This document shows, in pieces, positions 27,483 to 47,727 of a DNA stretch of 64,000 nt. The notes beneath the pieces were generated by a model. It saw nothing but the letters and a program-made list of their open reading frames with translations, was not told the DNA's origin and ran no database searches. Numbering within the stretch: the stretch's first letter is position 1; each line of letters starts with the position of its first letter. Position numbers and translations under genes: made by a program. This DNA comes from an uncultured delta proteobacterium (GTDB lineage Bacteria > Desulfobacterota > RBG-13-43-22): the NCBI GenBank assembly GCA_963743305.1, contig CAVUPH010000015.1:32001-96000 (forward strand), read 5' to 3'.

Positions 27483-29084
27483 TTAGCTGGCCCGGCTGAA
27501 GTAATCGGGGGATATTCCCGGCCAGGGGTTGTCGACCTGCTCCATCTGAACCAAGTCAGGCTCGGCCAGCCGGGTGAAATCCGACAGGTCCTTGGCCGCC
27601 CAGATCAACCGCTGAAACCGCTGATGGTGGTGGTGAAATCGTTGGTTGGCGTATTCCTTGGCCTGGGTGGTAAACAACAGGAAAGGCCAGTCGCTTCCCT
27701 CCATGAGAAGGAGTTCCCGGGCCAGTTGGCGCAATATCCGGTTTCCCCGTTCATCCACCTCCCGGCCCGATAAAGTGACTTGTTCCAAAACTTTTTCCAG
27801 CTCGCGGCTGGAGCCGTTGATATAAGGCCAGATCCAGCCGTGCTCCGGGTTCAGCCAGACGGTGAAGTCGCTGTTCATCCCCCAGGTGCTCACCCCCAAA
27901 TTGATCGTGGAAAAGCCTTCCTTTCGTCGATCTACGAAGTCGCCCAGGCTACCCGTCTTTACCTCCTCTTCTCCGGCCAGGCGGCGGAAGACCCGGTCGA
28001 TCCACTCCACTCCTTCATGCCACCAGTGGCCGAAGAGCTCGCCGTCATAAGGACTGACGATAAGTGGTTCCTGGTTGGAGGTTTCTCGCTCCAGTCGGAA
28101 GGACTCCTCCCGGAGCAAGGAAACAAAATGATCGGCCTGGCTTTCCACCCGTTCCCGGGCCATTTCCGGGTCATAGCGGGCCTTCTCCGGGCCGCCTGTC
28201 ACCCGGCAATAATGAAGACCGGATTCGGAATCCTTGGCATGAAATTCCAGGTACCAGGGATCGCCCGGGTAGCCTGTCTCCGCCGACCAGACCTGGCGGC
28301 CGGTGGCTTCATTGCGTCCGAAAACCCCCACCCCGGAGGGCAGCCGGTATCCCCGGCCGGTGCCGGGCCGGCTTTCCTCATATTGTTTTCCAGGAAGCCG
28401 GCCCGGGTCAGCCCGACCCCCTCCACAAAGAAATAGGTCAGGCCTTCGTCGGCCAGCCACTGGTCGATTCCCTTCCGTTCGCGCTTTTCCGCCTCCACCC
28501 ACTGGGCCGGACGGTAGGCGCACTCCGGCAGCCAGAAACCCCGCGGTTGCCGGCCGAAATATTTCCGGTACGTTTCCACCCCGAGGCGGATTTGAGAGAA
28601 GACGCTCGAGTCCCGTTCCAAGAGGGGCAGGAAGCCGTGAGTGGCCGCCGAAGTCAGGACCTCGATCACCCCTTCTTCCTGGAGCCATTTCAGGGTTCCC
28701 AAGATATCCCGGTAGAAGTCATGAACGTAGGCCTGAAAATGGCCTTGGAAGCGCTCCCGCCAGTATTCGGCAATTCGCCGGTTCTCGGGATTGCCCTGGA
28801 ATCTGCGGCCATCCTCCTCGGCCCGGCGGATCTTATCTTCCAGGTACTCGGTGAACCTTTGGTTCATATAAGGATCGGCCAGTTGCTCGGCCAGAATGGG
28901 AACCACGCCGATCATAATCCCCGGGCGGAGCCCATCCATCTGAAATCCGCGCAGCACCCGCAGCAGCGGGATATAGGTTTCATTCATGGCCTCGAAGAGC
29001 CATTCCTCTCCGGCCGGCCAGACCCCGGACTTACGGCAATAGGGAATATGGCAATGGAGCATTAGGGCAAAAGATACCCGGCAT
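27483..29084 (-). CDS. GH57 1,4-alpha-glucan branching enzyme (DUF1957 type), frameshifts ~29079 and ~28383
   Basis: LHCHIPY, WLFEAMNETYIPL, SAATHGFLP, GFWLPECAY, YPGDPWYLEFH, PYDGELFGHWWHEG, RELLLMEGSDWPF. Confidence 0.9.
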
Positions 29085-29272: not shown

Positions 29273-30451
29273 TTACCCTTCGTTCCGCACGATCAACGCC
29301 ACTCCCTGCCCCCCTCCCAGACACATGGTGGCCAGGCCCAGTTCTTTCCCGGAACGGCGCAGCTCATAGATGAGCTTGGTCAGGATGACCCCGCCGGTGC
29401 CGCTGATGGGATGGCCCAGGGCAATGGCCCCGCCGTTGACGTTGACCCTTTCCGGGTCCAATCCTAATTCGCGGATACAGGCCAGAGACTGGGAGGCAAA
29501 GGCCTCGTTCAGTTCCACCAGGTCGATCGCCGCCAGGGACAGGCCGGTCTTTTTCAGGACCGAGCGAGTGGCCTCAATCGGTCCAATGCCCATCAAGGAG
29601 GGTTCCACCCCGACCGAGGCATAACCGACGATAGACACCAGCGGTTTTAACCCCAGATCGCGGGCCTTGTCCCGGGAGGCCACCACCAGGGCGGAGGCCC
29701 CATCGTTCATGCCGCTGGAGTTGCCCGCCGTTACCGTACCCCCGGAGCGGAATACGGGCTTCAATTTGGCCAAATCCTCCAATGTGGTCTCCGGCCGCGG
29801 GTGTTCGTCCTGTTTAAAAAGAATGATCTTCCCCTTGGATTGCGGCACGGGAACAGGCACGATCTGTTCGTCGAACAGCCCCCCTTTCAGGGCCTGGGCC
29901 GCCTTCTTCTGGCTCTCCAGGGCAAAGGCGTCCTGATCGGTCCGGCTGATCTGATATTTTTCCGCCACATTTTCGGCCGTTTCCCCCATGGTGTTGCCGC
30001 TGATGGGATCGAACAGGACCAACTGATCCATGAGCTGCCCATGCCCCAGCCGGTATCCCCAACGGGCTTTGGTCAGGAGATAACCGGCGTTACTCATGTG
30101 TTCCAGCCCTCCGGCCACCAGGACTTGGGCGTCACCGGCCTTGATCGCCTGGGCCGCCAGAAAAACCGATTTCAGCGATCCGCCGCAGGCCTTGGCCACG
30201 GTAAAATTAGGCACCGGGATGGGGATGCCGGCGTCCACGGATATGGGCCGCGCCATATTGGGCGGCAGCTCGCCGGTCCGGTATTGCTGGGCGAAAACGA
30301 CCTCCTCCACTTGGCCCGGCTCCAACCCGGCCCTTTCCATGGCGGCTTTAATCACCAAAGCCCCCAGGGCCCGGTCGGTGACATTTTTCAGGGTCCCGCC
30401 AAACCGTCCCACCGCCGTTCGCACGGCACTGACAATCACAGGTTCATTCAT
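29273..30451 (-). CDS. Acetyl-CoA C-acyltransferase (thiolase)
   Basis: AVRTAVG, KACGGS, TAGNSSG, NEAF, GHP, CLGGG. Confidence 0.95.
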
Positions 30452-30541
30452 AGTATTCTTCCTCTTTCTTTGCTTTTTTCGTCTTCTTTGCTTCCTTCTT
30501 CCCTCTCCGTCGAAAGCGCCTATGCCGCCTCGGCGACTCAA

Positions 30542-31429
30542 TCAGGCCTTCGTCGGTCCCAGCCGGGTCCCGTCCGGGCCGTATTCGTACCAGCCGCGGC
30601 CGGTCTTGCGGCCCAGCCATCCGGCCTGGACCCTCCGCCGCAGCCCGGCCGGCGGATACCAGCGGGGGTCTTTGGTCTCCTCGTAAATCGCCAGCAGGGC
30701 CCCGTGGGTCACGTCCAGGCCCACCAGGTCTCCGGTTTCAAAGATGCCCATCTTGCGTCCGGAAGCCAGCCGCAGCCCCTTGTCCACATCCTCGATACCG
30801 GCCACGCCCATCTCCACCAGACGCATGGCTTCCAGCGCCGCCGGAAAATTAATGCGGTTGATCAGGAAGCCGGGTACGTCCTTGTGAACCAGGATCGGCT
30901 CCTTTTTGACCTGAAGGACAAACCGTCGTCCGGCCTCAAAGGCCTCGTCGCTGGTGAATTGACCGCGGACGACCTCCACGGCTTCCATCATGGGGGCCGG
31001 GCTGAAGAAGTGCAGACCCAGGACCTTATCGGGTCGTCGGGTCCCGGCCGCCAGGGTACTGATGCTGATGGCGCTGGTATTGGAGGCCAGCAGGGCCTCC
31101 GGCCGGGCCACGGCGTCAAACCGGGCAAAGATCTCCTGTTTGACTTCCAATTTTTCGAAGACGGCCTCGAGACAAAGATCGGCCTCCGCCGCCCGGCCGA
31201 AATCCGTGGTAGTGGCCATGCGGCCCATCACGGCCTCCAACGGCCCGGCCGCCTTTCCTTTTTCAATCAGCTTCCCGGCGCTCCAGGCAATGTTCTTGGT
31301 CGCCTTTTCCAGTACCTCCGGACCGATATCGCCGAGGATTACTTCCAGCCCGGCCTGGGCGCAGACCTGCGCGATGCCCGAACCCATAAGCCCGGCACCG
31401 GCAATAAATACCTTTTTAATTTCCATCAT
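30542..31429 (-). CDS. 3-hydroxybutyryl/3-hydroxyacyl-CoA dehydrogenase
   Basis: GAGLMGSGIA, EAVFE, SNTS, GLHFF.P, PGFLINR, DLVGLD. Confidence 0.93.
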   Translation of the reverse strand: MMEIKKVFIAGAGLMGSGIAQVCAQAGLEVILGDIGPEVLEKATKNIAWSAGKLIEKGKAAGPLEAVMGRMATTTDFGRAAEADLCLEAVFEKLEVKQEIFARFDAVARPEALLASNTSAISISTLAAGTRRPDKVLGLHFFSPAPMMEAVEVVRGQFTSDEAFEAGRRFVLQVKKEPILVHKDVPGFLINRINFPAALEAMRLVEMGVAGIEDVDKGLRLASGRKMGIFETGDLVGLDVTHGALLAIYEETKDPRWYPPAGLRRRVQAGWLGRKTGRGWYEYGPDGTRLGPTKA

Positions 31430-31527
31430 TGTTCCTTCTCCAAAAGCTGTGAGTTGCTTATCCCCTAATGGCTATTCGTAGATTGTTGAAGGCCGAAGGC
31501 CGTTATATAAATTTTTCGAAGAAAAAT

Positions 31528-32683
31528 TTATTTGGCTGTTACGCTTTCCGGCAGCCGTCGGGTGAGTATATCCACGGTTTCTTCGACCAGATCCTCCAGT
31601 ACCTGACGGGCGGGTTTGATCTCCTTGATCAACCCGGAGATCTGGCCGGCGAGGCCGCCTACGTATTCGTCCTGGTTGGCCTCCACGAAGGCCCCTAACA
31701 GCGCGGAAGAAATCAACACCTGGGAAGGAAACGGCAGGGGCTCCAGGCCGGATTGATCCCAGAGATCATGGTACCGGTTGTAACTGGCCCGCAAGGTCTT
31801 GCCCGAATAAGCCCGGCTGACCCGGGTATCCTCATCGGTGGATTCGATGATCCGGCGCTTGTTCACATCCAGGGCCCCGCCCTCGTTGGTGGCCAGGAAC
31901 CGGGTTCCCACCCAGACCCCGATGCAGCCCATGGCCAGGGCCGCGGCCACACCGCGACCGTCGCCGATGCCGCCGGCGGCCAGCACGGGAACCGGGAAGG
32001 CGGCATCCATGGCCTGAGGCAGCAAGGCCATGGTCCCGATCCGACCGGTGTGTCCTCCGCCCTCGTGCCCCTGGGCCACCAGGAGGTCGATACCGGACTG
32101 GGCCATCCGCCTGGCATTTTTGGCGTTTCCCGTAATGCCCAGCACTTTGATGCCCAGGGCATGGGCCTCCTCCACCATAAAGCCCGGGTTCCCCAATCCG
32201 GCGCAGAACAGGGGGACGCTCTCTTCGAGGCAGACCTTCACCGCCTCCAGGGGGCGCATGGTGGTGGTATTCATGCGGACCATGATCTCCGCCTCGGGCA
32301 GGACCATCTCCCGCCGGATTTTTTCGACCCAGTCCCGATGGGCCTGCGGAATGGACTGCAAGACCAGGCTGAGGGGTATCTTATCCGCCCCCGCCTGGCC
32401 GAGTCCGCCGCCCATATCCAGCTTCTGCGGCAAAAGGAGGTCCACCCCAAAGGGTTTATCGGTCAGCGTCTTGATCTGCCGGATGGCCTCTCGCAATTCA
32501 TCCACCGTGTAGCCGCTGCCGCCCAGGACCCCCAGGCCGCCGGCTTCCGAAACGGCCACCACCAGCTCCACGGGCGCGCCGGTCCGCTCGCCGATCAGCG
32601 TCGGGCCCCATGCCGGCGCTGAGAATAGGGTATTCAATCCCAAGAAGATCACAAAGTTTGGTTCGAAGCACTCGTTTGGCCAT
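31528..32683 (-). CDS. Nitronate monooxygenase/FabK-like FMN oxidoreductase (+1 frameshift ~32604)
   Basis: LLGIEYPILSAGMG, VSEAGGLG, AQGHEGGGHTG, LAAGGIGDGRG, GTRFLAT. Confidence 0.88.
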
Positions 32684-32777
32684 ATAGCCTCCTTACCTCT
32701 TCCAATGGTTAATAATTAACGATAGACTATTGATTATTAATAATTTGTTTCCCCTCATCCATGGCCTTCAGTCCCGC

Positions 32778-33843
32778 TTAACCTGCCTGTTCGACGATCT
32801 GTTGCGCGGTTTTTTCCAGTACCCGAACGCCGTGGATCAAAGCGGCAAAACGCTCATCTTTGGTCTGGCCATGAAAATAACGGTAATAGATTTGCTGAGC
32901 GATTACTGCCAGCCGAAAAACGCCGAAGCAGTAATAAAAATCGAAACAGGCGGTGTCCCGCCCGGTTTTTTCGCCATACCGGCCGATCAGTTCCTTCCGG
33001 GTCAGGGCCCCGTCAATATGGGTGGGCATGTTCCGCAGCAGGTGGGCCTCCGGGGGATCGTCTTTCTCGACCCAGTAGGCCAGCGTGTTGCCCAGGTCCA
33101 TGAGAGGGTCTCCGATGGTGGCCATCTCCCAGTCCAGGACCCCGATGATCCGGAAAGGGTCCCGGGCCTCGATCACCAGGTTGTCGAGCCGGTAATCGTT
33201 GTGGACCAGGGTCGGCCGATCGGTATCCGCCGGCATCTGCCCGGCCATCCAGGCCATGACCCCTTCAAAATCGGGGGCGTCGGGCGTTCGGGCCGCCCGG
33301 TATCTTTTGCTCCAACCTTCCACCTGCCGTCGCACATAGCCTTCCGGCTTGCCGAAATTTTCCAGCCCGATTTTTCTATAGTCAATGGAGTGAAGTTCCA
33401 CCAATACGTCCAGGAACCTTTCAAAAAGATTTCGGGCCTGTTCGGGGGTAATCACCAAACCCGGAGGAAGATCTTTTCGCAGGATCAGTCCATCGATTCG
33501 GGCCATGACATAGAACGGGCTGCCGATCACGGATTCATCTTCGGTATAGACTAGGGGTTCCGGACAATACGAATAGACCGGCCGCAGGGCCTTAAGGATC
33601 CGGTATTCCCGGCCCATATCATGGGCGGTTTTGGCCTTGGTCCCGAAAGGAGGCCGTCGCAGGACCAGATCCCGGTTTTTAAAAGAAAGCAAATAGGTCA
33701 GATTGGAAAACCCTCGGGGAAACTGCCGGACGGACAAGGGTCCCTCCAACCCGGGGACCGAAGCCTTCAAAAAAGCCTCGACCCGCGCCGGATCCAGTTC
33801 TTCTCCCGACTCGGATCGCCGTGGCCTGGTCAGTGTAATTCAT
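32778..33843 (-). CDS. APH-family phosphotransferase (LvaA / ACAD10-11 kinase-domain-like; +1 frameshift ~33811)
   Basis: QFPRGFSNLTY, LRRPP, AHDMGREY, HNDYRLDN, LDWEMATIGDPLMDL; N-terminus MNYTDQATAIR in adjacent frame. Confidence 0.9.
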
Positions 33844-33858
33844 TCCCAACCTCCCGAT

Positions 33859-34066
33859 ATTTCAAACTCGGATTCCGAATTCCGAAACAAATACAAATGG
33901 TCGAATTTCAATTTTTGAAAAGTCCCCTCCCCCTTGACGGGGGAGGGATAGGGAGCGGTGGTGAAGCCGTCGGGGTCGATAATTCGCGGGTTCACTCACC
34001 CCCGCAACGTTCGGCTGAGCTCAGTGCGAAGGGTCGTGAAGCCCCCCTCCCGTCGAGGGAGGGGAA
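33859..34066. repeat. Composite intergenic repeat: 7-mer TTCGAA-type arm plus CCCCTCCC…GGGAGGGG palindromic element
   Basis: CCCCTCCCCCTTGACGGGGGAGGG (33924) and CCCCTCCCGTCGAGGGAGGGG (34043) hairpins. Confidence 0.65.
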
Positions 34067-34078
34067 GACAGCTTAGTC

Positions 34079-35284
34079 CTATTTAATACTCTTCCCTTCA
34101 TACTCCCTCAAAATCCGGCGCGCCACGGTAACTTTGTGTACCTCGTCCACACCGTCATAGATTCGTGCGGCCCGTTCGTGACGGAAGTAGAAGGCGATGA
34201 TGGTGTCGTCGGTCATGCCCAACCCGCCGTGCACCTGCAGGGCCCGGTCTATGACTTTTTGCATGACCCCGGCCACATAAAATTTTATCAAAGAAATTTC
34301 CTCCCGGGCCTCTTTTTGTCCCTGATGCTCCATCTTCCAGGCAGCGTGGAGTACCATCAGCCGGGCCGCCTGGATTTCGGCCGCGCACTCGGCAATCCAG
34401 GTCTGGATGATCTGCCGGGTGGCCAGGGCCTTTCCGGGGGCGATCTCCCGCTTCAAAGCCCGGCCGCACATCAGGGAAAAGATACGGTTGCAGATTCCGA
34501 TCCAGCGCATGCAGTGGTGGATCCGCCCCGGTCCTAACCGCTCCTGGGCCATGACAAAGCCGGCCCCTTCGGAGCCGAGCAGGTTTTTTTGGGAAACCCG
34601 GCAGGACTGGTAAAGAATTTCGGCATGACTGGCCCAGCCGGAACCCTCGTGCCCCATGACGGGGATATTTCGGATCCGGTTGAAACCGGGCGTATCGGTG
34701 GGTACGATGATCATGCTGGCCCGCAAGTAGGGAGAGGCCTCCGGGTTGGTTACCGCCATGACGATGGCAAAGGCCGCTCCATCGGCGCTGGAGGTATACC
34801 ATTTGTGGCCGTTGATGACGTAATGGTCTCCGTCTTTTACGGCGGTGGTGTCGAGCATCACGGGGTTGGAACCGGCTAGTTCTACTTCGGTCATGGAAAA
34901 GCAACTCCGAATCTTCCCTTCCACCAGGGGATGGAGGTAGCGGGCTTTTTGATCCTCCGTGCCGTGCAGGTGCAGTATTTCAATGTTACCGGCATCGGGG
35001 GCCTGGGCCCCGAAGACGAAATGCCCCAGGGGCGACCTTCCCAGGGCTTCCGACACCAGGCCGAACTCCACCAGATCGAGCCCCAGACCGCCGTATTCCT
35101 TAGGGTGCTGGGGGGCCCACAGCTCCATCTTTTTTACCAGCCTCCGTTTTTCTTCCAACTCCGGCAGAAGCTCGATAAAATTTTTCTTCAGATATTCGGG
35201 TTCCAGGGGAATGAGTTCCTTGTCCACGAACTCATTCATCATTTCGAGAATAGCCTGCATCTTTTCTGATATTTCAAAATCCAT
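34079..35284 (-). CDS. Acyl-CoA dehydrogenase, ACAD10/11 / LvaC-like (Asp at catalytic position)
   Basis: QAPDAGNIEIL, RSCFSMTE, QERLGPGRIHHCMR, ARIYDGVDEVH. Confidence 0.92.
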   Translation of the reverse strand: MDFEISEKMQAILEMMNEFVDKELIPLEPEYLKKNFIELLPELEEKRRLVKKMELWAPQHPKEYGGLGLDLVEFGLVSEALGRSPLGHFVFGAQAPDAGNIEILHLHGTEDQKARYLHPLVEGKIRSCFSMTEVELAGSNPVMLDTTAVKDGDHYVINGHKWYTSSADGAAFAIVMAVTNPEASPYLRASMIIVPTDTPGFNRIRNIPVMGHEGSGWASHAEILYQSCRVSQKNLLGSEGAGFVMAQERLGPGRIHHCMRWIGICNRIFSLMCGRALKREIAPGKALATRQIIQTWIAECAAEIQAARLMVLHAAWKMEHQGQKEAREEISLIKFYVAGVMQKVIDRALQVHGGLGMTDDTIIAFYFRHERAARIYDGVDEVHKVTVARRILREYEGKSIK

Positions 35285-35382
35285 GATTCACTCCTAATCC
35301 TCTTGAGGTTTTATATTACTCTCTTCTGTCTTCTCTCCTCTTCCATCTTTCCCCTTCCATCTGTTTTTTGCCCCCCGCCTCC

Positions 35383-36090
35383 CTACCTGAAAGTAAGCAG
35401 GCCGGGTTCTTTTTCTACTTCCAGGTGGGCCACGTTGTTGAAGGAAGACAACGTCAAACGGTCGCGGTTATATTTGAAGGTGGAGACGGAGGCGTTTCGA
35501 ACCTGCCAGGACAATTGAACCGTCTCTCGATCCGACAGAGACAAGGCCATTTTCAAGATGGCCGACAACGGCCCTCCCGAAGTGACCAGGGCCACGGTCT
35601 TTCCCGGGCCGCTGGCCGACAGGATGCGCCTGATTCCTTCCCGGACTCGCCGGTTAAAGTCCGACCAGGATTCCAGATCCCCGGCTTCCGGCGATTCGGC
35701 CATCCAGCGGGAAAGAGACCGGTCCAGAATCCGCTGCAGGGCTCGACGATCGGTCTGGAGGCGTGGGAGGTCCTGCTCCAGGGAGGGGTCCTCCCGGATC
35801 AGGTGCGGAAGCTGTGTCCGGATCACGGCCGAGGAATCGTACTCATTGAATTCCGGCAGGATGGACAATTCCGATTGAGGGACGTTAGGCCGGAAGCAGG
35901 ACCGAAGCGGTTCGGCCGTAGCCACCTGTCGTTTCAGGGAGCCGGAATAGATGGCCTCAAACCGCGTGCCGATCCGGTTTAAAAAAGTCTCGAGCAAGCG
36001 GGCCTGCCGGATCCCCAGTTCGGAAAGACGGTCATAATCGGTCTGCCCGAATGATGCCTGGGCATGCCGGATAACGTAAAGATCTCCCAA
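35383..36090 (-). CDS. Histidine phosphatase family protein
   Basis: IRHAQASFG..DYDRLSELG, SGSLKRQ, FNEYD, VTSGG, RNAS, FNNVAHL. Confidence 0.9.
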   Translation of the reverse strand: MGDLYVIRHAQASFGQTDYDRLSELGIRQARLLETFLNRIGTRFEAIYSGSLKRQVATAEPLRSCFRPNVPQSELSILPEFNEYDSSAVIRTQLPHLIREDPSLEQDLPRLQTDRRALQRILDRSLSRWMAESPEAGDLESWSDFNRRVREGIRRILSASGPGKTVALVTSGGPLSAILKMALSLSDRETVQLSWQVRNASVSTFKYNRDRLTLSSFNNVAHLEVEKEPGLLTFR

Positions 36091-36144
36091 TCAATTCACC
36101 TTTTAAATGACCAGAACGGATTATTTCGAAAAAGCTGCCAAGGT

Positions 36145-36234
36145 TGTCATTGCGAGGAGTGAAGCGACGAAGCAATCTCGCATTATTCGAATAGTAGCAT
36201 GGGTGGGGATTGCTTCGCTTCGCTCGCAATGACA
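36145..36234. repeat. Palindromic repeat family A copy
   Basis: TGTCATTGCGAGGAGTGAAGCGACGAAGCAATC…GATTGCTTCGCTTCGCTCGCAATGACA. Confidence 0.85.
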
Positions 36235-36309
36235 GGCGTTTTTGACTTTTTCCAAGCTCATCCAGTTTTTTTTCGTGGTTCGAGTTTCGGATTTCGTGCT
36301 TTGAGTTTA

Positions 36310-37632
36310 TTAGGAGACCTTGAAAAAAGCTTCTTCAAACTCCGGGCGGCCGGCGTAACGCTTCAAGTAAAAACCCGGGGCCAGATCGATATCCTCAAAG
36401 AATTTTTCTTTGACCTCGATTCCGGACTGCTGCAGGGCCTGGACCAATTCATTCCTGGATGGAGGGCAGCCTTTCACCGGGATCATTTCCCGAATATCGG
36501 GATGGTCTTTATTGGCCTGAACCATGCATTTCCCCAGGAGGATAGTCTTCTTCATGCCGGGGGTGGGTTTCATGGCCTTGCCGGTAAGGATTTCCACTTC
36601 ATCCCAGGGGCTTCCCTTCCAGGCCTTGGCGATGGCCATGAGGATTACCCGAGTCAGCCCGGAACAATACGTACACATGGTCAAATCGTATTTTTTGTAG
36701 GAGAGGCCCCGGATGCCCATTTCGGCCATGGGTCGGGGCAGGGTGCCGGCTTCGTTATACGGAAAATAATATTCGTGACGGGCCGCCACCGCCTCGACCT
36801 TTTCCCCGACCACCTCTATTCCCGACAGATCCGGTTGCCGGCCCTGGATTCCGGCGGCGTGAACCAGATGGGGGACCTCGGCCGGTTCATAACCCAGGAT
36901 CTTGGCGCCCACAAAATCGGCTGACAAGATATCCGCCGAGGCAACCAGGAGGTTGCTGCGTCGGATCGTCCCATCGAACCCGGGGCCCCGCTCATTGGTG
37001 TAAATCCCGTCCAGCACGGTCAGACAGGGAGGAACGGCCTTAGCCAGTCGGCCGACCATATAATGCAAATCTTTTTGGGGATCGGCCCCATGACATTTTT
37101 TACGGGAGTTGATATTGATCAGTCCCTTCAGGTTTTTGATCCCCAGGGAGACAACGGCCTGGGCATGGGTTTTCAGGACCGGCAGATCGACCAGGAAGTC
37201 GCTTTCCAGAAAATCGACGTTGAAGTGCAGGGCCACTCCGTCCCCGAGATCCACTTTTTTAAAAGGACGTTCCAGAACGTTGACCACCCGGACCCCATAC
37301 CTTTTTTTCAGCCGGTTATAACCCAGCGTTTCAAAGGCATGGGCTGGGGTTTCCGGGTCCTTGACCGTACGGGTGACCATTCCTTCCCCGATGGTAATGT
37401 CCTCGATCCCTTTTTCTTGCAGCAGGTGGACCAGGTCTTCTACCACCCGGGAAGTGGTGATCACCCCCCATTTGGGAAAAGGGGTGAAGCGGGTCCAGAA
37501 AACGATGTTCGGTTTGATGAACACCCGGGCCTGGGAGGGCAGGTGATCCAGACCGCGGCAGAGCTCGACGGCCCGGCGCACCGATTCCAGGGGTTTTTCA
37601 TAGCGGACAATGGAAACCAAGGAGGGATTCAT
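36310..37632 (-). CDS. DUF362 domain protein with C-terminal Fe-S motif (paralog 1)
   Basis: FIKPN, IGEG, DLPVLKTH, SLGIKNLKG; C-terminal CTYC…GKC…GCPP. Confidence 0.82.
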   Translation of the reverse strand: MNPSLVSIVRYEKPLESVRRAVELCRGLDHLPSQARVFIKPNIVFWTRFTPFPKWGVITTSRVVEDLVHLLQEKGIEDITIGEGMVTRTVKDPETPAHAFETLGYNRLKKRYGVRVVNVLERPFKKVDLGDGVALHFNVDFLESDFLVDLPVLKTHAQAVVSLGIKNLKGLININSRKKCHGADPQKDLHYMVGRLAKAVPPCLTVLDGIYTNERGPGFDGTIRRSNLLVASADILSADFVGAKILGYEPAEVPHLVHAAGIQGRQPDLSGIEVVGEKVEAVAARHEYYFPYNEAGTLPRPMAEMGIRGLSYKKYDLTMCTYCSGLTRVILMAIAKAWKGSPWDEVEILTGKAMKPTPGMKKTILLGKCMVQANKDHPDIREMIPVKGCPPSRNELVQALQQSGIEVKEKFFEDIDLAPGFYLKRYAGRPEFEEAFFKVS

Positions 37633-37668
37633 AGGACCTCTATTTATCATTTCGAAATACAAATCGCC

Positions 37669-37747
37669 GGTTAGGGAGAGGGAACGAAACCCAACAGTAC
37701 AGCAGGCTCCCTACCCGTTGGGTTTCGCATTGTTTTACCTAACCTAC
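37669..37747. repeat. REP-like inverted pair
   Basis: GGTTAGG…CGAAACCCAAC / GTTGGGTTTCG…CCTAACCTAC. Confidence 0.65.
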
Positions 37748-37834
37748 CAAAGGCACAATTTTCAATAATCAATTGTCAATTAACAATTAAGAATTGATTA
37801 TTGATTTTGATTATTAAGTTTTCGCCTGGTTTTT

Positions 37835-39046
37835 TTACCAGTCATAGTCTTCCTTCTCGATAACGGTAGCCACCCCCTGGCCGCCACCAACGCAGGCATT
37901 GGCCAAACCGTAGCGTTTGCCCTTGAGGTTCAGGGTCCGGGCCAGGGTTCCCACCAAACGGATGCCGGTAGCCCCCAGCGCGTGGCCGATAGCCGTACCG
38001 CCGCCCATGGCATTCACCTTTTCCGGGTCGAGGCCCAGTTCCTTGATACAGTTCAGGACCACGATACAGAAGGCTTCATTGATTTCCCAAAAATCGATGT
38101 CCGAGGCCTTCAATCCCGCCTTTTCCAGGGCCATCTTGCTGGCCGGAACCGGTCCCGCCCCCATGATGGTCGGGTCCACCCCGGCAATGCCCATGGACCG
38201 GATAGTCGCCAGGGGCTTGATCCCTTTCTTCTTGGCCGTTTCCTTGGACATGAGCACCATACTGCTGGCGGCGGCGTTGAGGGGGGAGGAATTTCCCGGA
38301 GTGATGACCCCGTCTTTCTTGAAAGCCGGCCGCAGACCGGCCAGCCCTTCCAGGGTTGTGTCGCCCCGGACGGCTTGATCCTTGTCGACCGTCAGGATTG
38401 TTCCGTCGGCTTGTTCGGCCTCTACGGGCAGGATCTCCCCCGCCAGAAACCCATCGGCCTGGGACTGGGCCGCCCTTTGATGGGAGCGAACGCCCCATTG
38501 ATCCAGATCCTCCTTGGTAAGGCCGGACTGAGCGAATAGCTTTTCCGCCGTCAGCCCCATGTTGGTGGACGTCATCATGTCCCAGTGCAGGTAGGCCGGG
38601 TCCGTATAAAGCGCCATATTCGGGACGATATGTCCCCGATCGATGGTGGCCAGGCCCATGGGCACCCGGGTCATGTTTTCATAGCCTCCGGTCAGGACGA
38701 TATCGCAGAATCCCTGGGCGATCTCCATAAACCCGACATGAATGGCCGCCATGGAAGACCCGCACTGCTGGTCCACAAACTTGGCCGGAATCGTTTCCGG
38801 AAAATTGGCCAGGAAGATAGGGTTGCGCCCTCCATAGGCCCACTGCTCGCCCACGGCCGTGGCGCAGCCGACGACAAAATCATTGATCTCTTTGGGCTCC
38901 AATCCGGTCCTCTTGACGACCTCGGGCAGGAGTTTGGCGAGGAGCTCATCTCCCCGCATCTTGCAAAACACGTCCCGGGCCGGGTCGTTGGGCCGGGATC
39001 GGGACTGGGCTGTTCTTAAATATCCGGCAATCACTACTTCCTTCAT
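37835..39046 (-). CDS. Acetyl-CoA C-acyltransferase (thiolase)
   Basis: QQCGSS, TPGNSSP, NEAF, GHALG, CVGGG. Confidence 0.93.
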   Translation of the reverse strand: MKEVVIAGYLRTAQSRSRPNDPARDVFCKMRGDELLAKLLPEVVKRTGLEPKEINDFVVGCATAVGEQWAYGGRNPIFLANFPETIPAKFVDQQCGSSMAAIHVGFMEIAQGFCDIVLTGGYENMTRVPMGLATIDRGHIVPNMALYTDPAYLHWDMMTSTNMGLTAEKLFAQSGLTKEDLDQWGVRSHQRAAQSQADGFLAGEILPVEAEQADGTILTVDKDQAVRGDTTLEGLAGLRPAFKKDGVITPGNSSPLNAAASSMVLMSKETAKKKGIKPLATIRSMGIAGVDPTIMGAGPVPASKMALEKAGLKASDIDFWEINEAFCIVVLNCIKELGLDPEKVNAMGGGTAIGHALGATGIRLVGTLARTLNLKGKRYGLANACVGGGQGVATVIEKEDYDW

Positions 39047-39139
39047 ACTTTGTTCCTCCCTTTTTCACCGCAAAGGCGCCAAGGACTCGCGATGATTTTA
39101 TTTTTAACTTTCGTGGCTTCACAGAAAGCCTGAAAACCC

Positions 39140-39240
39140 GTCATTGCGAGCGAAGCGAAGCAATCTCGTCTTTAGCAATTTGTGGCTCACAAATGAGCTC
39201 ACGGGGGGATTGCTTCGTCGCTTCACTCCTCGCAATGACA
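39140..39240. repeat. Palindromic repeat family A copy
   Basis: GTCATTGCGAGCGAAGCGAAGCAATC…GATTGCTTCGTCGCTTCACTCCTCGCAATGACA. Confidence 0.85.
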
Positions 39241-39270
39241 TCTGGGGGGCCTTTTGTGAACACGTAATCT

Positions 39271-41400
39271 TTAATCCTGGTAGAAAGTCTTATTCCCTTC
39301 GGCCATTTCTTTCAATAGCTGGGCCGGCCGGAAGCGAAAGCCATATTGCTTCTCCAGGGCCAGCAACTTTTCATAGACGTTCTTGACCCCCCATTGATCA
39401 GCATAACGCAGAATCCCGCCCCGGTAAGGTGGAAATCCAGTGCCATAGATCATGGCCAGATCCATATCCCAGGGCCGGTCACAAATCCCTTCCTCAATCA
39501 TCAGAGCGGCCTCGTTGATGGCCAGGGCCAGCATCGTGTCCACGACTTCCTGATAGCTTATCTTCTTAGGGGTGACCGCATTTTCCTTCCAATACTGCTG
39601 AACCACTTCGGCGATTTTCGGGTTAGGGGTTACGGTCTTGCCCTGGTAAATGAAATAACCCGAGCCGGTTTTACGGCCATAGCAGCCGGTCTGATAAATC
39701 CGCTCCGTGAGAGGGTGAATTTTGTAGCGTTCACCCAGCCGCTGCTCAAAAGTTTTGTTGACGTGGTAGTTGATATCGATCCCGGTCAGGTCGGCCAGGG
39801 TGGCCGGGCCCATGGGCATACCGAAATCCATCATGGCCTCTTCGATGATCCGGCCCTCTACCCCGTCAGCCACCAGGAACACGGACCCGCCCATTAGGCC
39901 GCCGAGCTGCCGGGAGACATAGAAACCCGGCCCGTCGTTGACGACGATAGGTATTTTCTTGATATTCCGGCCGAAGGCCACGCCGCTGGCCAGGGTCGGG
40001 TCCGAGGTCTGCTGGGCGCAGATGATTTCCAGAAGCTGCATCCGGTGGGCCGGGTTGAAGAAATGCAGGCCGATCATCCGGCCGGGGTCCTTCAGGACCG
40101 AGGCCATTTCAGTGATCGGCAGGGCGCTGGTATTGGTCCCGAAGATCACCTCGGGACGGCAGATCCCCTCCAGCTTTAACCAGATGTCCTGTTTGACCTT
40201 CATGTTCTCCAACACCGCCTCGATCACCAGGTCCACGTCCTTCAAATCCTCCAGGGCGGTAGTGGTGGTCAGCCGGGCCTGGATCATTCTTTCCAGGTCG
40301 GCCGGGGTCAGCTTCTTTTTCTTGATCGGGTACTCAAAGGTTTTCCGGATGGCGGCCACCCCCTTCTCGAGGGCGCCGTCGTTGATATCCCAGAGGACCG
40401 CTTCGAAGCCGCCCACCAGCAGGAGGTTGACGATTCCGGAACCCATGACCCCGCCGCCCAGCATGGCCACTTTTTTGATTTTCGCCGGTTCCAGGCCCTT
40501 GATCCGGGGCAGCCGCCCGGCCGCCCGGGTGTTCAGGAAGATGCCGATCAGGTTCCTACACACATCGGTCAAGGCGCACTCGCTGAAGAGCTCCACTTCA
40601 CGTTCGATATCCGCTTCGATGTCGAAGCCCAACCCCTTTTCCACGGCCTCGATGGCTTTGAAAGGCGCGATGTAGCCCTTGGCCTTGTTCATGGTCATCA
40701 TCTTGACATAGTTGAGGAAGGGCTTTTTCTCCGCGGCGCTGGGCAACCGGTCGATCTTGTTTCGGGTCCGGCGCAGGTCCAGCCGGGGCCGCCCGGAGAG
40801 AAACCGCTCGGCCGCCTTTAACGCGGCTTCGATCAGCTTTTCCGCAGGGACAACTTCATCCACCAGGCCTCGCTGCAAGGCCTTTTCGGCCTTGATCGGA
40901 GCGCCGGTGGTGATCATCTCGATGGCGTTGGGCAGGCCGATCAGTCGGGGCAGTCGCTGGGTACCGCCGGCTCCCGGAATCAGGCCGATTTGCACCTCGG
41001 GCTGCCCCAGGTTGACCCCCGGCGTGGCCACCCGGTAATGGCCGGCCATGGCCGTCTCCAACCCTCCGCCCAGACAGTTCCCGTTAATGGCGGCGATGAC
41101 CGGCTTGGGGGCCATCTCGATCCAGTTCAGGAAGCGGGCCGCCTCCAGGGCCGGCCCAAATATATCTTCCCTCTTTTTAACCAGTTGCAGCCGGGTGATA
41201 TCCGCCCCGGCAATGAAATTCTTTCCGGTGCCGGTCAGGACGATGGCCTTGACGTCCCCATCCTGCATGGCTTCACGGATAGCCTCCCCGAAGTCCTGCA
41301 TCAATTGAGGGGACATCTGGTTCACCGGGGGGTTGTCTAGCGTTAGAATCGCCACCCCGTTTTGCTGTGTCACTTTTACAGTCTGGTAATCAGTTTTCAT
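39271..41400 (-). CDS. Multifunctional enoyl-CoA hydratase / 3-hydroxyacyl-CoA dehydrogenase (FadB/FadJ-like)
   Basis: FIAGADI, CLGGGLE, QPEVQIGLIPGAGGTQRLPR; GGGVMGSGI, NTSAL, GLHFFNP. Confidence 0.93.
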   Translation of the reverse strand: MKTDYQTVKVTQQNGVAILTLDNPPVNQMSPQLMQDFGEAIREAMQDGDVKAIVLTGTGKNFIAGADITRLQLVKKREDIFGPALEAARFLNWIEMAPKPVIAAINGNCLGGGLETAMAGHYRVATPGVNLGQPEVQIGLIPGAGGTQRLPRLIGLPNAIEMITTGAPIKAEKALQRGLVDEVVPAEKLIEAALKAAERFLSGRPRLDLRRTRNKIDRLPSAAEKKPFLNYVKMMTMNKAKGYIAPFKAIEAVEKGLGFDIEADIEREVELFSECALTDVCRNLIGIFLNTRAAGRLPRIKGLEPAKIKKVAMLGGGVMGSGIVNLLLVGGFEAVLWDINDGALEKGVAAIRKTFEYPIKKKKLTPADLERMIQARLTTTTALEDLKDVDLVIEAVLENMKVKQDIWLKLEGICRPEVIFGTNTSALPITEMASVLKDPGRMIGLHFFNPAHRMQLLEIICAQQTSDPTLASGVAFGRNIKKIPIVVNDGPGFYVSRQLGGLMGGSVFLVADGVEGRIIEEAMMDFGMPMGPATLADLTGIDINYHVNKTFEQRLGERYKIHPLTERIYQTGCYGRKTGSGYFIYQGKTVTPNPKIAEVVQQYWKENAVTPKKISYQEVVDTMLALAINEAALMIEEGICDRPWDMDLAMIYGTGFPPYRGGILRYADQWGVKNVYEKLLALEKQYGFRFRPAQLLKEMAEGNKTFYQD

Positions 41401-41486
41401 AGGCAATAACTCCATCTATTTTTATGATTGCGGTTATTTATTTCTTGATAATTTCGCAAAACGTACATAAACACGAGGCCAATTAT

Positions 41487-41574
41487 TGTCATGGCGAGCG
41501 AAGCGAAGCAATCCCCACTGCGGCTCATAATTGACTATGGGGGATTGCTTCATCGCTTCACTCCTCGCAATGAC
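41487..41574. repeat. Palindromic repeat family A copy
   Basis: TGTCATGGCGAGCGAAGCGAAGCAATCCCC…GGGGATTGCTTCATCGCTTCACTCCTCGCAATGAC. Confidence 0.85.
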
Positions 41575-43261
41575 GGTTTGGGGGACTTGCTGCAAATTTA
41601 TTTTTTATTTTCGCTTCTTCCTCAGCCCGCAGGACTTTGCGCAGGATCTTCCCGACTGCCGATTTGGGCAGGCCCTCCCGGAATTCCACCTGTTTGGGCA
41701 CCTTGTAGGCGGCCAAATGCTCTTTACAGAAACCGACGATCTCTTCGGGTGTGGCCGTCTCCCCCTCCTTCAAGACCACATAGGCCTTGACCGTCTCCCC
41801 CCGGTACTGGTCGGCCAGGCCCACACAAACGGCCTCCTGGATCTTGGGGTGCTGGAAGAGCACTTCATCGATTTCCCGGGGATAGATATTGAAGCCTCCG
41901 GCGATTATCATATCTTTTTTTCGATCGACGATATACAGGTAGTCATCCTCGTCCCAAACGGCGATGTCCCCCGTGTGGAGCCAGCCGTCCCGGAGCTGCC
42001 CCCGGGTTTCCTCCGGGTTGTTCCAATAGCCCTGCATGACCAGAGGGCTCCGGATGAGTATTTCCCCCGGTTCCCCCCGGGGCACATCCTCTTTTCCGGC
42101 GACCACGTCCACCAGCCTGACATCCGTATCCGGCCAAGGGATGCCGATGCTGCCGGGTTTGCGCAGGCCAAACACCGGGTTGCTGATGCCCAGGGAGGTG
42201 GTCTCGCTCATGCCCCAGCCCTCGGAATAAGAAATGCCCAGGTCTTTGACCTGCTCGATCAATTCCAGCGGCATGGGAGCGGCCCCGGAGTTGAGCATCT
42301 TGATCTTTCGGTCCAGGTTCAGCTCCTCCGCCTTGGGATGTTTGAGCAGGGCGTTGATCAGGGTGGGCACGGCCGGGAAAAAAGTGATTTCCTTGAACCC
42401 GGCCAGCAGGCCCATAAATTCTTCAATTTCAAATCGGGGGACCAGGTACTGGGTGGCGCCGTTGATGATGGCCCAACCCTGGCAGACAATCGTCCCGTAG
42501 ACATGGAAATAAGGCAACACGGCCAGGACCGATCGCCGCTCCGGGGGAACCAACCCGGTGGTCATTTTGCCCCAGACGGCCACCTGGACCGTGGCGGCCA
42601 CGATATTCCCGTGGGTGAGCACGGCCCCCTTGGGAATACCGGTCGTCCCGCCGGTGAATTGGATCAGGGCCGGATCTTCGGGCAGGATGGCTACCCGCGG
42701 CACCCGGGTTTGGGTACAGTTTTCAATCAACTGCGAGAAATGGTGCCAGCCTCCCGGCAGGCCCAATTCGGCCGGTGTGCTCTGAGGCATCCCCTGGATA
42801 TAGTCCGTGACCCGGGTCACGACCACCCGCGCAATAGGTACCGCTTGGGTGACCAGCACGATGTTGGGCAGGACCATATCGAAGGTGAATAGCGTGGTAA
42901 GGCCCGTGTCGGTCACGATCCGCTTCAGTTCGTCCGGGGTATACATGGGATTGAGATTGACGCCGACGGCCCCCAGGGAAAGCACGGCATGATAGGCGAT
43001 CACGTATTGCGGGCAAGTAGGCAGATGGAGCCCCACCCGGTCCCCTTTCCGGACCCCCAGTTCCCCCAGGGCATTGGCCAGGCGCAACACTTGCCGACGC
43101 AGGTCGTAGTAGGAAATCTCGCTGCCGTAGAAATGCGTGGCCGCCTTGTCCGGGAACCCGTTGGCTGTATAATGTAAAAAATCCTGGACCGGTATCCGGG
43201 GATACCGTAGGGACAGAGGAACTTCGTAATCGTAGTGGCGTTGCCAGGGTCTGGTTTCCAT
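41558..43261 (-). CDS. Long-chain fatty acid-CoA ligase (FadD-like); true stop may be ~41598
   Basis: FTGGTTGIPKG, EGWGMSET, LHTGD, DRKKDMII.GGFN, KSAVGKIL; C-terminal tail runs through an A-tract into the repeat. Confidence 0.92.
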   Translation of the reverse strand: METRPWQRHYDYEVPLSLRYPRIPVQDFLHYTANGFPDKAATHFYGSEISYYDLRRQVLRLANALGELGVRKGDRVGLHLPTCPQYVIAYHAVLSLGAVGVNLNPMYTPDELKRIVTDTGLTTLFTFDMVLPNIVLVTQAVPIARVVVTRVTDYIQGMPQSTPAELGLPGGWHHFSQLIENCTQTRVPRVAILPEDPALIQFTGGTTGIPKGAVLTHGNIVAATVQVAVWGKMTTGLVPPERRSVLAVLPYFHVYGTIVCQGWAIINGATQYLVPRFEIEEFMGLLAGFKEITFFPAVPTLINALLKHPKAEELNLDRKIKMLNSGAAPMPLELIEQVKDLGISYSEGWGMSETTSLGISNPVFGLRKPGSIGIPWPDTDVRLVDVVAGKEDVPRGEPGEILIRSPLVMQGYWNNPEETRGQLRDGWLHTGDIAVWDEDDYLYIVDRKKDMIIAGGFNIYPREIDEVLFQHPKIQEAVCVGLADQYRGETVKAYVVLKEGETATPEEIVGFCKEHLAAYKVPKQVEFREGLPKSAVGKILRKVLRAEEEAKIKNKFAASPPNRHCEE

Positions 43262-43326
43262 CTTCATCTCCTCCCGCAAAGGGCGTTAACGAAACAGGGG
43301 ACAGCCGCGGATATTTGTGTAGCAAT

Positions 43327-43435
43327 ACTCAATAGTTAACGTTGAGTTGTACTGCCGATTACATAGATAACTATTAATTTTTATTGATGATTTTGTCAAG
43401 TATTTTTTTATTGACAAGCGTTTTAATTTTTCATA
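43327..43435. promoter_or_regulatory. Divergent promoter region (CoA ligase / merR) with palindrome
   Basis: Back-to-back TTGACA (minus 43394-43399; plus 43411-43416); ACTCAA-N9-TTGAGT at 43327-43347. Confidence 0.5.
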
Positions 43436-43514
43436 TTTTTAGCAGAATGGACTACTCTTTAAGGTTTTGCGGCTCAAACCGGCAGCGGCAATTTACTTCC
43501 AGCTTCTCAAAACC

Positions 43515-44213
43515 ATGAAAATAAGCGAACTGGCTGATCGGACTCGGGTCCCCAAGGAAACCATCCACTACTACCTTCGCGAAGGGGTCCTGCGGAAGCC
43601 CCGCAAGACCGGCAAGAACATCGCCGATTATAATGAAAATTACGTGGACCAGATCCGGATCATCAAACAACTCCAGGAACACTATTTTCTGCCCCTTTCG
43701 GTCATCAAAAAAATCATCCGTCGTCATCAGAAACAGTCCCCCTCTGAAAAATATTCCCTGAATTTCTTGAGCGAATATTTTCGCCCCTTGGACCGGTTGA
43801 TCGCCGTGGCCGTCACCGGACGGGAGGCTTTCCGGGAAGCCACCGGCCTGTCGGCCAAATGGTTGGAAAAGTTCGAAGCCTGGGGGGTGATCAGCTTCGA
43901 AATCCATGAGGACCGGCCGGTGTATACCCCGGATGATGTCATTCTCGGCAAATTGATTGTCAGCATGGATCACCTGGGATTCGGTCCCCGGGACGGCTAT
44001 AACCCGGAGGATTTACGGATCATTGCCGATTTTATCCGCGACTATGTCAAGAAAAGTCAGAAAAATTTTTATCGGACCAGCCTGGAGCGTCTGTCTCCGG
44101 AGGAAATTGAGGAGAAAAGTATCAAATTCAGGGAAATCATGAGCTTGTTTCTGTATCATATTTATCGGAAGCTGGTGCGGGAACAATACGGTCGGGTATT
44201 CAAATCCGCCTGA
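43515..44213 (+). CDS. MerR-family transcriptional regulator
   Basis: MKISELADRTRVPKETIHYYLREGVL…ADY…IRIIKQLQ..FLPLSVIK. Confidence 0.9.
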   Translation: MKISELADRTRVPKETIHYYLREGVLRKPRKTGKNIADYNENYVDQIRIIKQLQEHYFLPLSVIKKIIRRHQKQSPSEKYSLNFLSEYFRPLDRLIAVAVTGREAFREATGLSAKWLEKFEAWGVISFEIHEDRPVYTPDDVILGKLIVSMDHLGFGPRDGYNPEDLRIIADFIRDYVKKSQKNFYRTSLERLSPEEIEEKSIKFREIMSLFLYHIYRKLVREQYGRVFKSA

Positions 44214-44249
44214 AAAGCGGAAGAAATAAAGCAACGAAAGGAGTCTGCT

Positions 44250-45497: not shown

Positions 45498-45506
45498 AAT
45501 ATATCA

Positions 45507-45620
45507 GGGTATCGGGTAGGGTATCGGGGGTAGGGTTGGTGGAGAAAACGGTGGCCATTCTTCCTGGTTCCTGGGAAATTTTGCTTTTTCCCCTTATACC
45601 CTACCCCCTACACCCTACCG
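45507..45620. repeat. Inverted pair of 7-mer repeats (GGGTATC/GGGTAGG … CCCTACC)
   Basis: GGGTATCGGGTAGGGTATCGGGGGTAGGG … CCCTTATACCCTACCCCCTACACCCTACC. Confidence 0.6.
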
Positions 45621-45645
45621 CCTTAAAATTTTAGGCGATCTATCC

Positions 45646-46509: not shown

Positions 46510-46539
46510 TGATCTCAAAGTTCCTTCACCCACTCCATG

Positions 46540-46686
46540 GTCATTCTGAGTCCCGCGATAGCGCGGGACGAAGAATCTCGTTTTCTTTCACCAGGTCCGA
46601 GATCCTTCACGGAGTTTACCCTGAGCCGAAAGACGAGACCCTTCGTTTCACTCAGGGTGACAGAAAGGCGAAGGGTTCAGGATGAC
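46540..46686. repeat. Nested palindromic repeat (GTCATTCTGAG…GAAGAATCT / GATCCTTC…CAGGATGAC type)
   Basis: Outer GTCATTCTGA…TCAGGATGAC arms with an inner ACCCTGAG…CTCAGGGT palindrome. Confidence 0.7.
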
Positions 46687-47718: not shown

Positions 47719-47727
47719 GCGGACCGA

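Follow-up and report, generated by a model that had tools for sequence, protein, structure and literature searches.

A phosphatase-fold, acyl-CoA dehydrogenase and kinase module in a beta-oxidation operon of a Syntrophales-like Desulfobacterota genome: a candidate phosphorylation-dependent entry of hydroxyacyl-CoA

Does a beta-oxidation operon of an anaerobic bacterium encode an entry for hydroxy fatty acids that is paid for with ATP? The question is raised by a stretch of 64,000 nucleotides (the window; G000:C15:32001-96000) from a metagenome-assembled genome (MAG) of 4.9 Mb in 43 contigs, estimated to be 90% complete. The named close homologs of the window proteins belong to MAGs of Deltaproteobacteria, Desulfobacterota and Syntrophales. 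The stretch is best explained as a beta-oxidation operon that belongs to a Syntrophales-like member of the Desulfobacterota and carries a three-gene module: a histidine-phosphatase-fold protein (HisPhos), an acyl-CoA dehydrogenase (ACAD) homolog and an APH-fold kinase. An original prediction, made from the DNA letters, had taken these genes for a split equivalent of the mammalian ACAD10/11 system. In our analysis, a phosphorylation-dependent entry of hydroxyacyl-CoA into beta-oxidation is the best reading of the locus, with a probability that we put at roughly 0.55.

The operon and its kinase-dehydrogenase pair

The operon is composed of ten intact, co-directional open reading frames (ORFs) on the minus strand, from 29273 to 43279, with intergenic gaps of 0-308 nt. 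Pfam searches confirmed the domains that the original prediction had named for all ten genes. The module lies in the middle: an atypical histidine-phosphatase-fold protein of 235 aa (35383-36090; PF00300, His_Phos_1), an ACAD10/11-like FAD enzyme of 401 aa with ACAD domains and similarity to ACAD11, predicted to eliminate phosphate (34079-35284), and an APH-fold small-molecule kinase of 330 aa (32778-33770; PF01636). The last two are assigned below to a group that we call clade A. The first gene of the operon encodes a FadD-like acyl-CoA ligase of 573 aa (41558-43279; PF00501 and PF13193), whose top NCBIfam models are long-chain-fatty-acid--CoA ligases, every one under its cut-off. It is followed by a multifunctional enoyl-CoA hydratase/3-hydroxyacyl-CoA dehydrogenase of FadJ/FadB type with 714 aa (39271-41415; ECH_1, 3HCDH_N and 3HCDH; 564 bits to the FadJ model, below the cut-off of 869), a thiolase of 403 aa (37835-39046; Thiolase_N and Thiolase_C; NF005033 at 597.7 bits, above the cut-off of 511) and a DUF362 protein of 450 aa (36310-37662; PF04015). 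Downstream of the kinase are an NMO/FabK-like FMN protein of 374 aa (31528-32652; PF03060), an Hbd-like 3-hydroxyacyl/3-hydroxybutyryl-CoA dehydrogenase of 295 aa (30542-31429; 3HCDH_N and 3HCDH; NF004474 at 284 bits, below the cut-off of 408) and a BktB-like thiolase (29273-30541; Thiolase_N and Thiolase_C; TIGR01930 at 451 bits, above the cut-off of 240). The real start of this last gene is probably about 90 nt further in, as the Pfam match begins at residue 35.

The complete ten-gene order is present in three other genomes of the same family (G001, G002 and G007), the core of the operon was found on a short contig of a fourth (G004), and HisPhos-ACAD-APH recurs in other families of the phylum. 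Since relatives keep the order, the arrangement is not due to chance. The operon carries a single ACAD gene, that of the clade-A enzyme, and hence encodes no other entry step. None of the public sequencing runs contained half of the sampled words (top run, 0.25). Short contigs of a wetland RNA library (131-185 nt, with 1-10 differences from the operon) match the Hbd-like dehydrogenase, the FadB-type gene and, twice each, the kinase, the ACAD and the first thiolase. These give a weak hint of expression, weak because DNA can occur in RNA libraries.

The operon ACAD scores 263.8 bits against human ACAD11 (2wbi), 262.7 against mouse ACAD11 (8v3u) and 252.4 against a homolog from Mycobacterium abscessus (4hr3), while the best ordinary ACAD reaches 169.4. 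It has the motifs IYDG (residue 375) and HHCMR (residue 256), and ERLGPGRIHHCMR is conserved in the alignment with ACAD11. The Asp of IYDG aligns with ADG of ACAD11 and with ANG of 8v3v, the second deposited mouse ACAD11 sequence. A catalytic Asp, an HCMR motif and an upstream Arg near FAD are described as marks of ACAD10/11 and LvaC, and an Asp-to-Asn change is reported to inactivate enzymes of the ACAD10/11 type (PMC12440821). Enzymes with the Asp base and HHCMR are reported to require no external electron acceptor (PMC11342911, PMC12440821). As the original prediction had read from the translations, the other two ACADs of the window are of the Glu type: a FadE-type ACAD of 613 aa (17791-19632) has IHEG and a split FadE (59344-61127) has LYEG. 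The motifs and scores support membership of the operon enzyme in an ACAD10/11-like superclade, apart from ordinary ACADs.

The kinase also is of the ACAD10/11 type, as had been proposed. It matches the ACAD11 kinase domain (8v3v) with 171.1 bits and 3dxp with 178.7, and keeps the catalytic motifs HNDYRLDN (HxDxxxxN) and DWE. VLRRPP and REY, the Arg (beta3)/Glu (alphaC) pair, align with 9o56 and ACAD11. Its nearest solved relative is 9o56 (312.6 bits), numbered D214, K216, N219 and D234 in the alignment, and the Lys that this enzyme has two residues past the catalytic Asp is Arg in the operon kinase. A preprint of Ye et al. gives the same residue numbers for the structure of a stand-alone 'ACAD10 kinase' from Caldalkalibacillus thermarum, from which we infer that 9o56 is this protein; it is reported to phosphorylate 1-O-alkylglycerols under stimulation by acetyl-CoA (10.1101/2025.09.10.675409). 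For the operon kinase, 4-hydroxyacyl-CoA is therefore a candidate substrate only.

Two clades and the partners of clade A

The place of the operon ACAD was examined in two quick maximum-likelihood searches (41 and 33 rows), with support from the SH-like approximate likelihood ratio test (SH-aLRT) and no bootstraps. Ordinary ACADs from the same genome served as the outgroup; ACAD11 was included, and LvaA, LvaB and LvaC of Pseudomonas putida were absent. In both trees all ACAD10/11-like rows separate from the ordinary ACADs with a support of 100. Eukaryotic ACAD10 and ACAD11, proteobacterial copies and a second copy from the MAG itself, on contig C22, form clade B (support 97-99). Neither tree places the operon ACAD in clade B, nor its relatives from Desulfobacterota, a copy from Nevskia or the bacterial fusions of ACAD and kinase; in the second tree these together are the sister of clade B, clade A (SH-aLRT 94), and in the first they are unresolved basal branches with no single clade. 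A Pseudomonas APH-ACAD-SDR cluster (SDR, short-chain dehydrogenase/reductase), used as a putative stand-in for lva, sits on a long branch on the clade-B side (support 88). Judged from the trees and the bit scores, the operon ACAD and kinase are not orthologues of ACAD10/11 and belong to sister clade A. The equivalence proposed by the original prediction thus holds for superclade membership, the Asp and HHCMR, and fails for orthology; the enzyme does not group with ordinary dehydrogenases.

With the operon proteins as BLAST queries, a search of every reading frame of the genome located the clade-B pair, an adjoining ACAD (40.5% identity) and kinase (34%) at G000:C22:15016-17429 (locus L020, 9049-11432). 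These are the closest relatives of ACAD11 in the genome. The C22 ACAD scores 468.4 bits against 8v3u and 480.2 against 4hr3 (operon: 262.7 and 252.4), and the C22 kinase 287.4 bits against 8v3v and 385.4 against 3dxp (operon: 171.1 and 178.7). The order is reversed for 9o56, with 218.8 bits for the C22 kinase and 312.6 for that of the operon. The pair stands alone, flanked by helicase genes, an ORF without matches and a PLD-like gene, with no beta-oxidation genes at that site.

The coupling of ACAD and kinase was surveyed across 301 evenly sampled genomes of the phylum, counting as clade A any ACAD with at least 65% identity; kinship among the genomes inflates the counts. Clade-A ACADs occur at 39 places in 36 genomes, and 31 of the 39 have an APH kinase within 4 kb. 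The gap between them is usually about 800 nt and holds a TetR gene in one genome (G037); in the 308-nt gap of the operon the longest frames on the same strand have about 60 codons. Moreover, 34 single-chain clade-A fusions of ACAD and APH were found among the matches listed (742-792 aa, 50-65% identity; P0274-P0307), some of them from Myxococcota and Deltaproteobacteria MAGs. The six fusions checked all begin with the ACAD part and end with the kinase, the reverse of ACAD10/11. The fusions argue that clade-A kinase and ACAD act sequentially.

In several other lineages, a 3-hydroxyacyl-CoA dehydrogenase of the NF006143 equivalog lies directly 3' of the kinase (loci L059, L064 and L073, of about 12.8, 12.9 and 4.2 kb; 335-354 bits, cut-off 312). 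From its position it could be the missing 4-oxo/4-hydroxy dehydrogenase.

The original prediction presented the histidine phosphatase as a novelty of this assembly, which our survey does not sustain: the gene is, by its distribution, a fixed partner of clade A in several phyla, and not peculiar to this operon. At E <= 1e-5, 596 relatives of similar length were retrieved, every one of them a PF00300 protein (79.5 bits for the operon protein). In the sample it was found in 31 genomes, 30 of which also have a clade-A ACAD, and it lies within 1.5 kb of 25 of the 39 clade-A ACADs and of none of the 30 clade-B ACADs. Adjoining genes are mostly 16-140 bp apart, and several of the non-adjacent cases sit at contig ends; six of the 36 genomes with a clade-A ACAD gave no phosphatase match at E <= 1e-20. 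A pattern scan with one genome per species returned at least 593 phosphatase loci, the best 80 of which were examined. Among these, 35 are mostly from Desulfobacterota MAGs; 28 of them carry a clade-A-like ACAD (at least 55% identity), 14 a kinase (at least 50% identity) and 18 a homolog of the alpha subunit of electron transfer flavoprotein (ETF). Counting only the 30 with room past the phosphatase gene, the ACAD is present in 25. A precedent exists in the levulinate-induced cluster of Pseudomonas citronellolis LA18T, where a histidine phosphatase gene is described between the lvaA and lvaC homologs, in place of lvaB (PMC6692424); this phosphatase can be likened to that of the operon by family description only. 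In the passages on the cluster, that paper calls for analysis of the phosphatase and does not test its function.

Alignments of 17 and 24 of the phosphatase-fold sequences show R8, H9 (in RHAQASFG), R54 and E83 to be invariant. The second His of the family is replaced by an invariant Ser171, with TSGG opposite GHGG of 9mmh. Longer, fused forms were not found at E <= 1e-10, which is weak evidence, and a predicted complex of kinase and phosphatase scored 0.00, which speaks neither for nor against an interaction. A paralog with 54% identity is divergent from etfB/etfA just left of the window (G000:C15:30481-31185).

The DUF362 and NMO-like proteins, which the original prediction had regarded as redox partners of the module, were rejected as core members, since their adjacency to it is limited to one or two families; they are best taken, from their distribution, as lineage-specific additions. 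Orthologs of DUF362 are present in 64 of the 301 genomes, and by eye comparison of coordinates they adjoin the kinase in seven genomes, all of family f18, and in the family of the window. Fourteen loci from genomes with DUF362 away from the module, 11 of them from genomes without a clade-A ACAD match, have ligase-like, ABC-transporter and TetR genes as neighbours. DUF362 is probably a redox accessory without a specific tie to the module. For the NMO-like gene there are orthologs in 38 genomes of the sample, and in the same comparison it adjoins the module in the window's own family alone. The NMO-like protein is a member of PF03060 only, being below the cut-off of the FabK model (TIGR03151; 209.6 bits against 453.1), and its best PDB matches are FabK enzymes (172 bits).

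The DUF362 protein matches PF04015 with 131.4 bits (cut-off 24), and in 40 relatives K50, H166, K176, N177, H191, D218, C330, C333, C379 and C399 are invariant, the four Cys lying in the C-terminal part. Pfam clan CL0471 is reported to unite DUF362 with the LarA N-terminal domain (PMC11770544). In a weak profile match (probability 3.8%, E 0.011), H166, K176 and H191 stand opposite PH..GGK..H of the LarA homolog of this genome. The His, Lys and His of LarA aligned here are those that we take to hold its nickel-pincer cofactor. This likeness is a lead only: Lar_N gave no Pfam match in the DUF362 protein at E <= 10, the DUF362 profile found nothing significant among PDB sequences (best E 0.8), a protein atlas search returned DUF362 clusters only, and the resemblance of a C-terminal GCPP stretch to NuoB and hydrogenase small subunits is not significant (E about 1). 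The genome also has a homolog of LarC, the nickel insertion protein, and a LarA-family protein (G000:C24:19835-20968 and G000:C12:65246-65842), and may thus synthesize the nickel-pincer cofactor. A third, distant DUF362 homolog is located on contig C24.

Proposed route and competing explanations

With the observed motifs, clade membership and gene fusions as the basis, the FadD-like ligase would make the CoA thioester of a gamma-hydroxy fatty acid or, once reduced, of a gamma-oxo one, and the kinase would spend one ATP to phosphorylate the hydroxyl. The Asp of the clade-A ACAD would take the alpha proton while the HHCMR/Arg pocket holds the phosphate; FAD would cycle internally, phosphate would be expelled, and the 2-enoyl-CoA formed would be broken down by FadJ, the two thiolases and the Hbd-like dehydrogenase. 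The most likely role of the phosphatase-fold protein is to keep the phosphorylated intermediate in check or to repair it, which could mean hydrolysis of stray 4-phosphoacyl-CoA or of the free 4-phospho acid, or restraint of the kinase, and would parallel the HAD domain of ACAD10; such a safety valve or kinase restraint is the function that we favour. The DUF362 and NMO-like proteins would be general redox accessories recruited in this lineage. The chemistry of the route has been assayed for ACAD10/11 and for Burkholderia and Pseudomonas enzymes, as reported in PMC11342911 and PMC12440821. We prefer this reading because motifs, superclade membership, the kinase-domain match and the fusions agree.

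Several observations weigh against it, and four are the main doubts. First, the nearest solved kinase, 9o56, is a reported alkylglycerol kinase. Second, among the 45 loci of the phosphatase scan that are titled Pseudomonadota, 22 have the clade-A kinase nearby, only one has a clade-A-like ACAD and none an ETF-alpha homolog, at the same thresholds as above. At the Pseudomonas paraeruginosa locus L066 the order is SohB peptidase, phosphatase, SCP2, kinase and SDR, the SCP2 lipid-carrier gene (104 aa, 9772-10086) standing between phosphatase and kinase. Five genomes reached by way of these loci (three of Pseudomonas, one titled Gordonia and one of Ectothiorhodospiraceae) hold only ACADs that are 39-42% identical to that of the operon, none of which shares the contig or site of the clade-A kinase. 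The phosphatase is thus found with the clade-A kinase over a wider range than with the ACAD. Third, ETF genes are divergent and upstream of the module in 14 of 24 loci with at least 3 kb of upstream sequence, and a redox-neutral lyase does not need ETF. Fourth, the C22 pair, being closer to ACAD11, could alone do the classical job. In addition, clade A contains no assayed enzyme; Pfam found no SDR (adh_short) domain in the ten operon genes, as the original prediction had stated, so that an LvaD-type SDR is missing; and phosphatase activity is uncertain, as the second catalytic His is absent.

Two of these doubts are at the root of an alternative that we consider unlikely, in which clade-A kinase and phosphatase form a lipid-alcohol kinase/phosphatase pair acting on 1-O-alkylglycerols or long-chain alcohols, and the ACAD and beta-oxidation handle the released chains. 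The kinase and HAD domains of ACAD10 have been reported as such a pair (10.1101/2025.09.10.675409). The closeness of the kinase to 9o56, the company of kinase and phosphatase without a clade-A-like ACAD in Pseudomonadota, and the SCP2 and SDR genes of the annotated locus L066 point the same way. Many sulfate-reducing Desulfobacterota make alkylglycerol ether lipids, which also counts for it. Yet the clade-A ACAD retains the HHCMR phosphate motif and the Asp base, in many bacteria it is fused to the kinase, which links the product of the latter to an acyl-CoA enzyme, and the context of the operon is one of ligase, FadJ and thiolases. The acetyl-CoA stimulation reported in the preprint would suit a CoA-binding substrate site, and its authors consider the relation between the two activities unclear.

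To the same low degree we credit the possibility that clade A performs the same phosphorylate-then-eliminate chemistry on another class of substrates than clade B (perhaps the opposite enantiomer, chains that are branched or very long, or a hydroxyl placed elsewhere), with the phosphatase as a catalytic phosphotransfer or mutase step. The presence of both clades in one genome recalls mammalian ACAD10 and ACAD11, whose chain-length preferences are reported to differ (PMC11342911). The conserved nucleophile His, the two Arg and the Glu, together with the invariant Ser, fit altered chemistry better than decay, and the authors of PMC6692424 proposed that the phosphatase may help to remove phosphate. 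Against this explanation, the ACAD suffices alone in the assayed systems as reported (PMC11342911, PMC12440821), and six genomes with a clade-A ACAD lack a phosphatase match. Somewhat more speculative is an extended version, in which clade A would be a separate three-part system, often with its own ETF, for substrates that clade B does not handle. Its phosphatase would be an integral element, catalytic or controlling, that converged on the HAD domain of ACAD10. In this lineage the four-Cys DUF362 protein of the LarA clan would provide the right 4-hydroxy stereoisomer or reduce 4-oxoacyl-CoA instead of LvaD, and energy-limited anaerobes would gain a radical-free, ATP-priced alternative to AbfD.

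Finally, the clade-A ACAD could be the working acyl-CoA dehydrogenase of the operon and feed ETF, with kinase and phosphatase regulatory or unrelated, which we find the least probable: the lack of another ACAD in the operon and the divergent ETF, seen also by the phosphatase paralog outside the window, agree with it, whereas the Asp base and HHCMR are reported to mark acceptor-independent enzymes (PMC11342911, PMC12440821), Glu-type FadE genes are present in the same window, and the kinase-ACAD fusions suggest sequential chemistry.

Surroundings, known systems and implications

Around the operon there are Liv-type ABC transporters, TetR regulators, the two Glu-type FadE genes, a second DUF362 and ETF-alpha. 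At the ETF end (327-2041), etfA is followed by an ORF of 229 aa without a Pfam match (1352-2041), which is kept beside ETF in relatives. A TetR regulator (49571-50293) and the second DUF362 gene, a paralog (50312-51640), lie on the minus strand. In relatives (G001 and G002) these two are immediately upstream of the ligase, while the window has, between them and the ligase, two ORFs without a family match and a Liv-type ABC transporter cluster on the plus strand (43452-49195; compared with loci L021, L022 and L033). Three genes are each split into two frames that overlap or adjoin: a GH57 branching enzyme (27483-29062), a Peripla_BP_6 binding protein (25272-26548) and the FadE-type ACAD at 59344-61127. 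They are frameshifts or assembly errors. Farther afield, an ORF of 1298 aa with ToxA_N and NEL (E3 ligase) domains is found near the phosphatase of a Pseudomonas locus (L086, 3709-7605) and is unrelated to the module.

Two overlapping sigma-70-like promoters were detected upstream of the ligase on the minus strand (43370-43417; 10/12 and 9/12 positions), as consensus matches only, and the terminator scan gave matches inside genes only. An AT-rich palindrome of 20 nt with TCAAT-type heptads (inverted repeat I10, 37762-37804) lies about 100 nt upstream of the DUF362 start, and a weaker copy is in the APH-NMO gap (32728-32740). The pattern occurs six times against 1.57 expected and may mark a TetR operator or an internal promoter. 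Copies of a second element (inverted repeats I1-I4), resembling repetitive extragenic palindromic (REP) sequences, are found at 36125-36236 (the HisPhos-DUF362 gap), 39137-39260, 41487-41592 and 61391-61416. Its 26-nt core has four matches in the window, in three operon gaps and near 61400, against none expected. The many loose ends of the public-run contigs that pile up on this repeat mean that it is widespread in other DNA.

A possible remnant of AbfD, which the original prediction placed at 61158, was discarded: the frame has 54 codons (61158-61322), no Pfam match at E <= 0.01, and stands beside the REP-like repeat. In the whole genome, the HpaB_N/AbfD family model matched on contigs C38 and C25 only, the gene on C25 being broken. 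AbfD, the 4-hydroxybutyryl-CoA dehydratase of the radical route of anaerobes, achieves the same net task as that proposed for the operon, from 4-hydroxyacyl-CoA to enoyl-CoA without oxygen. It has an unrelated fold and needs no ATP.

Mammalian ACAD10 and ACAD11 (2wbi, 8v3u, 8v3v) likewise join an APH-fold kinase to an ACAD with an Asp base and HHCMR, and the chemistry that we propose for the operon is the one reported for them, in which 4-hydroxyacyl-CoA is phosphorylated and phosphate is eliminated to give 2-enoyl-CoA (PMC12440821, PMC11342911). They are single chains with the kinase part first, whereas the operon genes are split, the six clade-A fusions checked place the ACAD first and the host is an anaerobe. 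In ACAD10 a HAD domain accompanies the kinase; the operon has a separate histidine-phosphatase-fold protein instead. The lvaABCDE system of P. putida is described with ligase, kinase and ACAD as separate genes feeding 4-hydroxyacyl-CoA into beta-oxidation, as here. The operon differs in having no LvaD-type SDR and no sigma-54 LvaR, with TetR-type regulators in their place, a ligase of the long-chain FadD type, and the module set inside a full FadJ/thiolase operon. The kinase of C. thermarum is the closest solved relative of the operon kinase and has the same catalytic Asp, Asn, DWE and Arg/Glu pair; it differs in the reported alkylglycerol substrate and in the catalytic-loop Lys, which is Arg in the operon.

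In a search of a limited collection of article texts, neither a study of this system in anaerobes nor one testing the bacterial phosphatase was found. What is new here is the split into clades A and B, with both in a single genome, a phosphatase confined to clade A, fusions that begin with the ACAD, and the reduction of DUF362 and the NMO-like protein to lineage-specific additions.

The preferred reading would extend a kinase-dependent route for gamma-hydroxy acids, so far seen in aerobes and animals, to Desulfobacterota that are strict anaerobes and probably syntrophs, for which its ATP cost would be significant, and it would show the two clades of the system together in one genome. A phosphatase-fold protein has joined this kinase twice, as a HAD domain in ACAD10 and with the histidine-phosphatase fold in bacteria, and these two recruitments suggest that the pathway includes such a function. 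Of the HAD domain of ACAD10 there are two interpretations, as a brake on the kinase (PMC11342911) and as an ether-lipid phosphatase (10.1101/2025.09.10.675409). The split bacterial genes may offer a simple system in which to settle the disagreements on this domain and on the substrate of the kinase.

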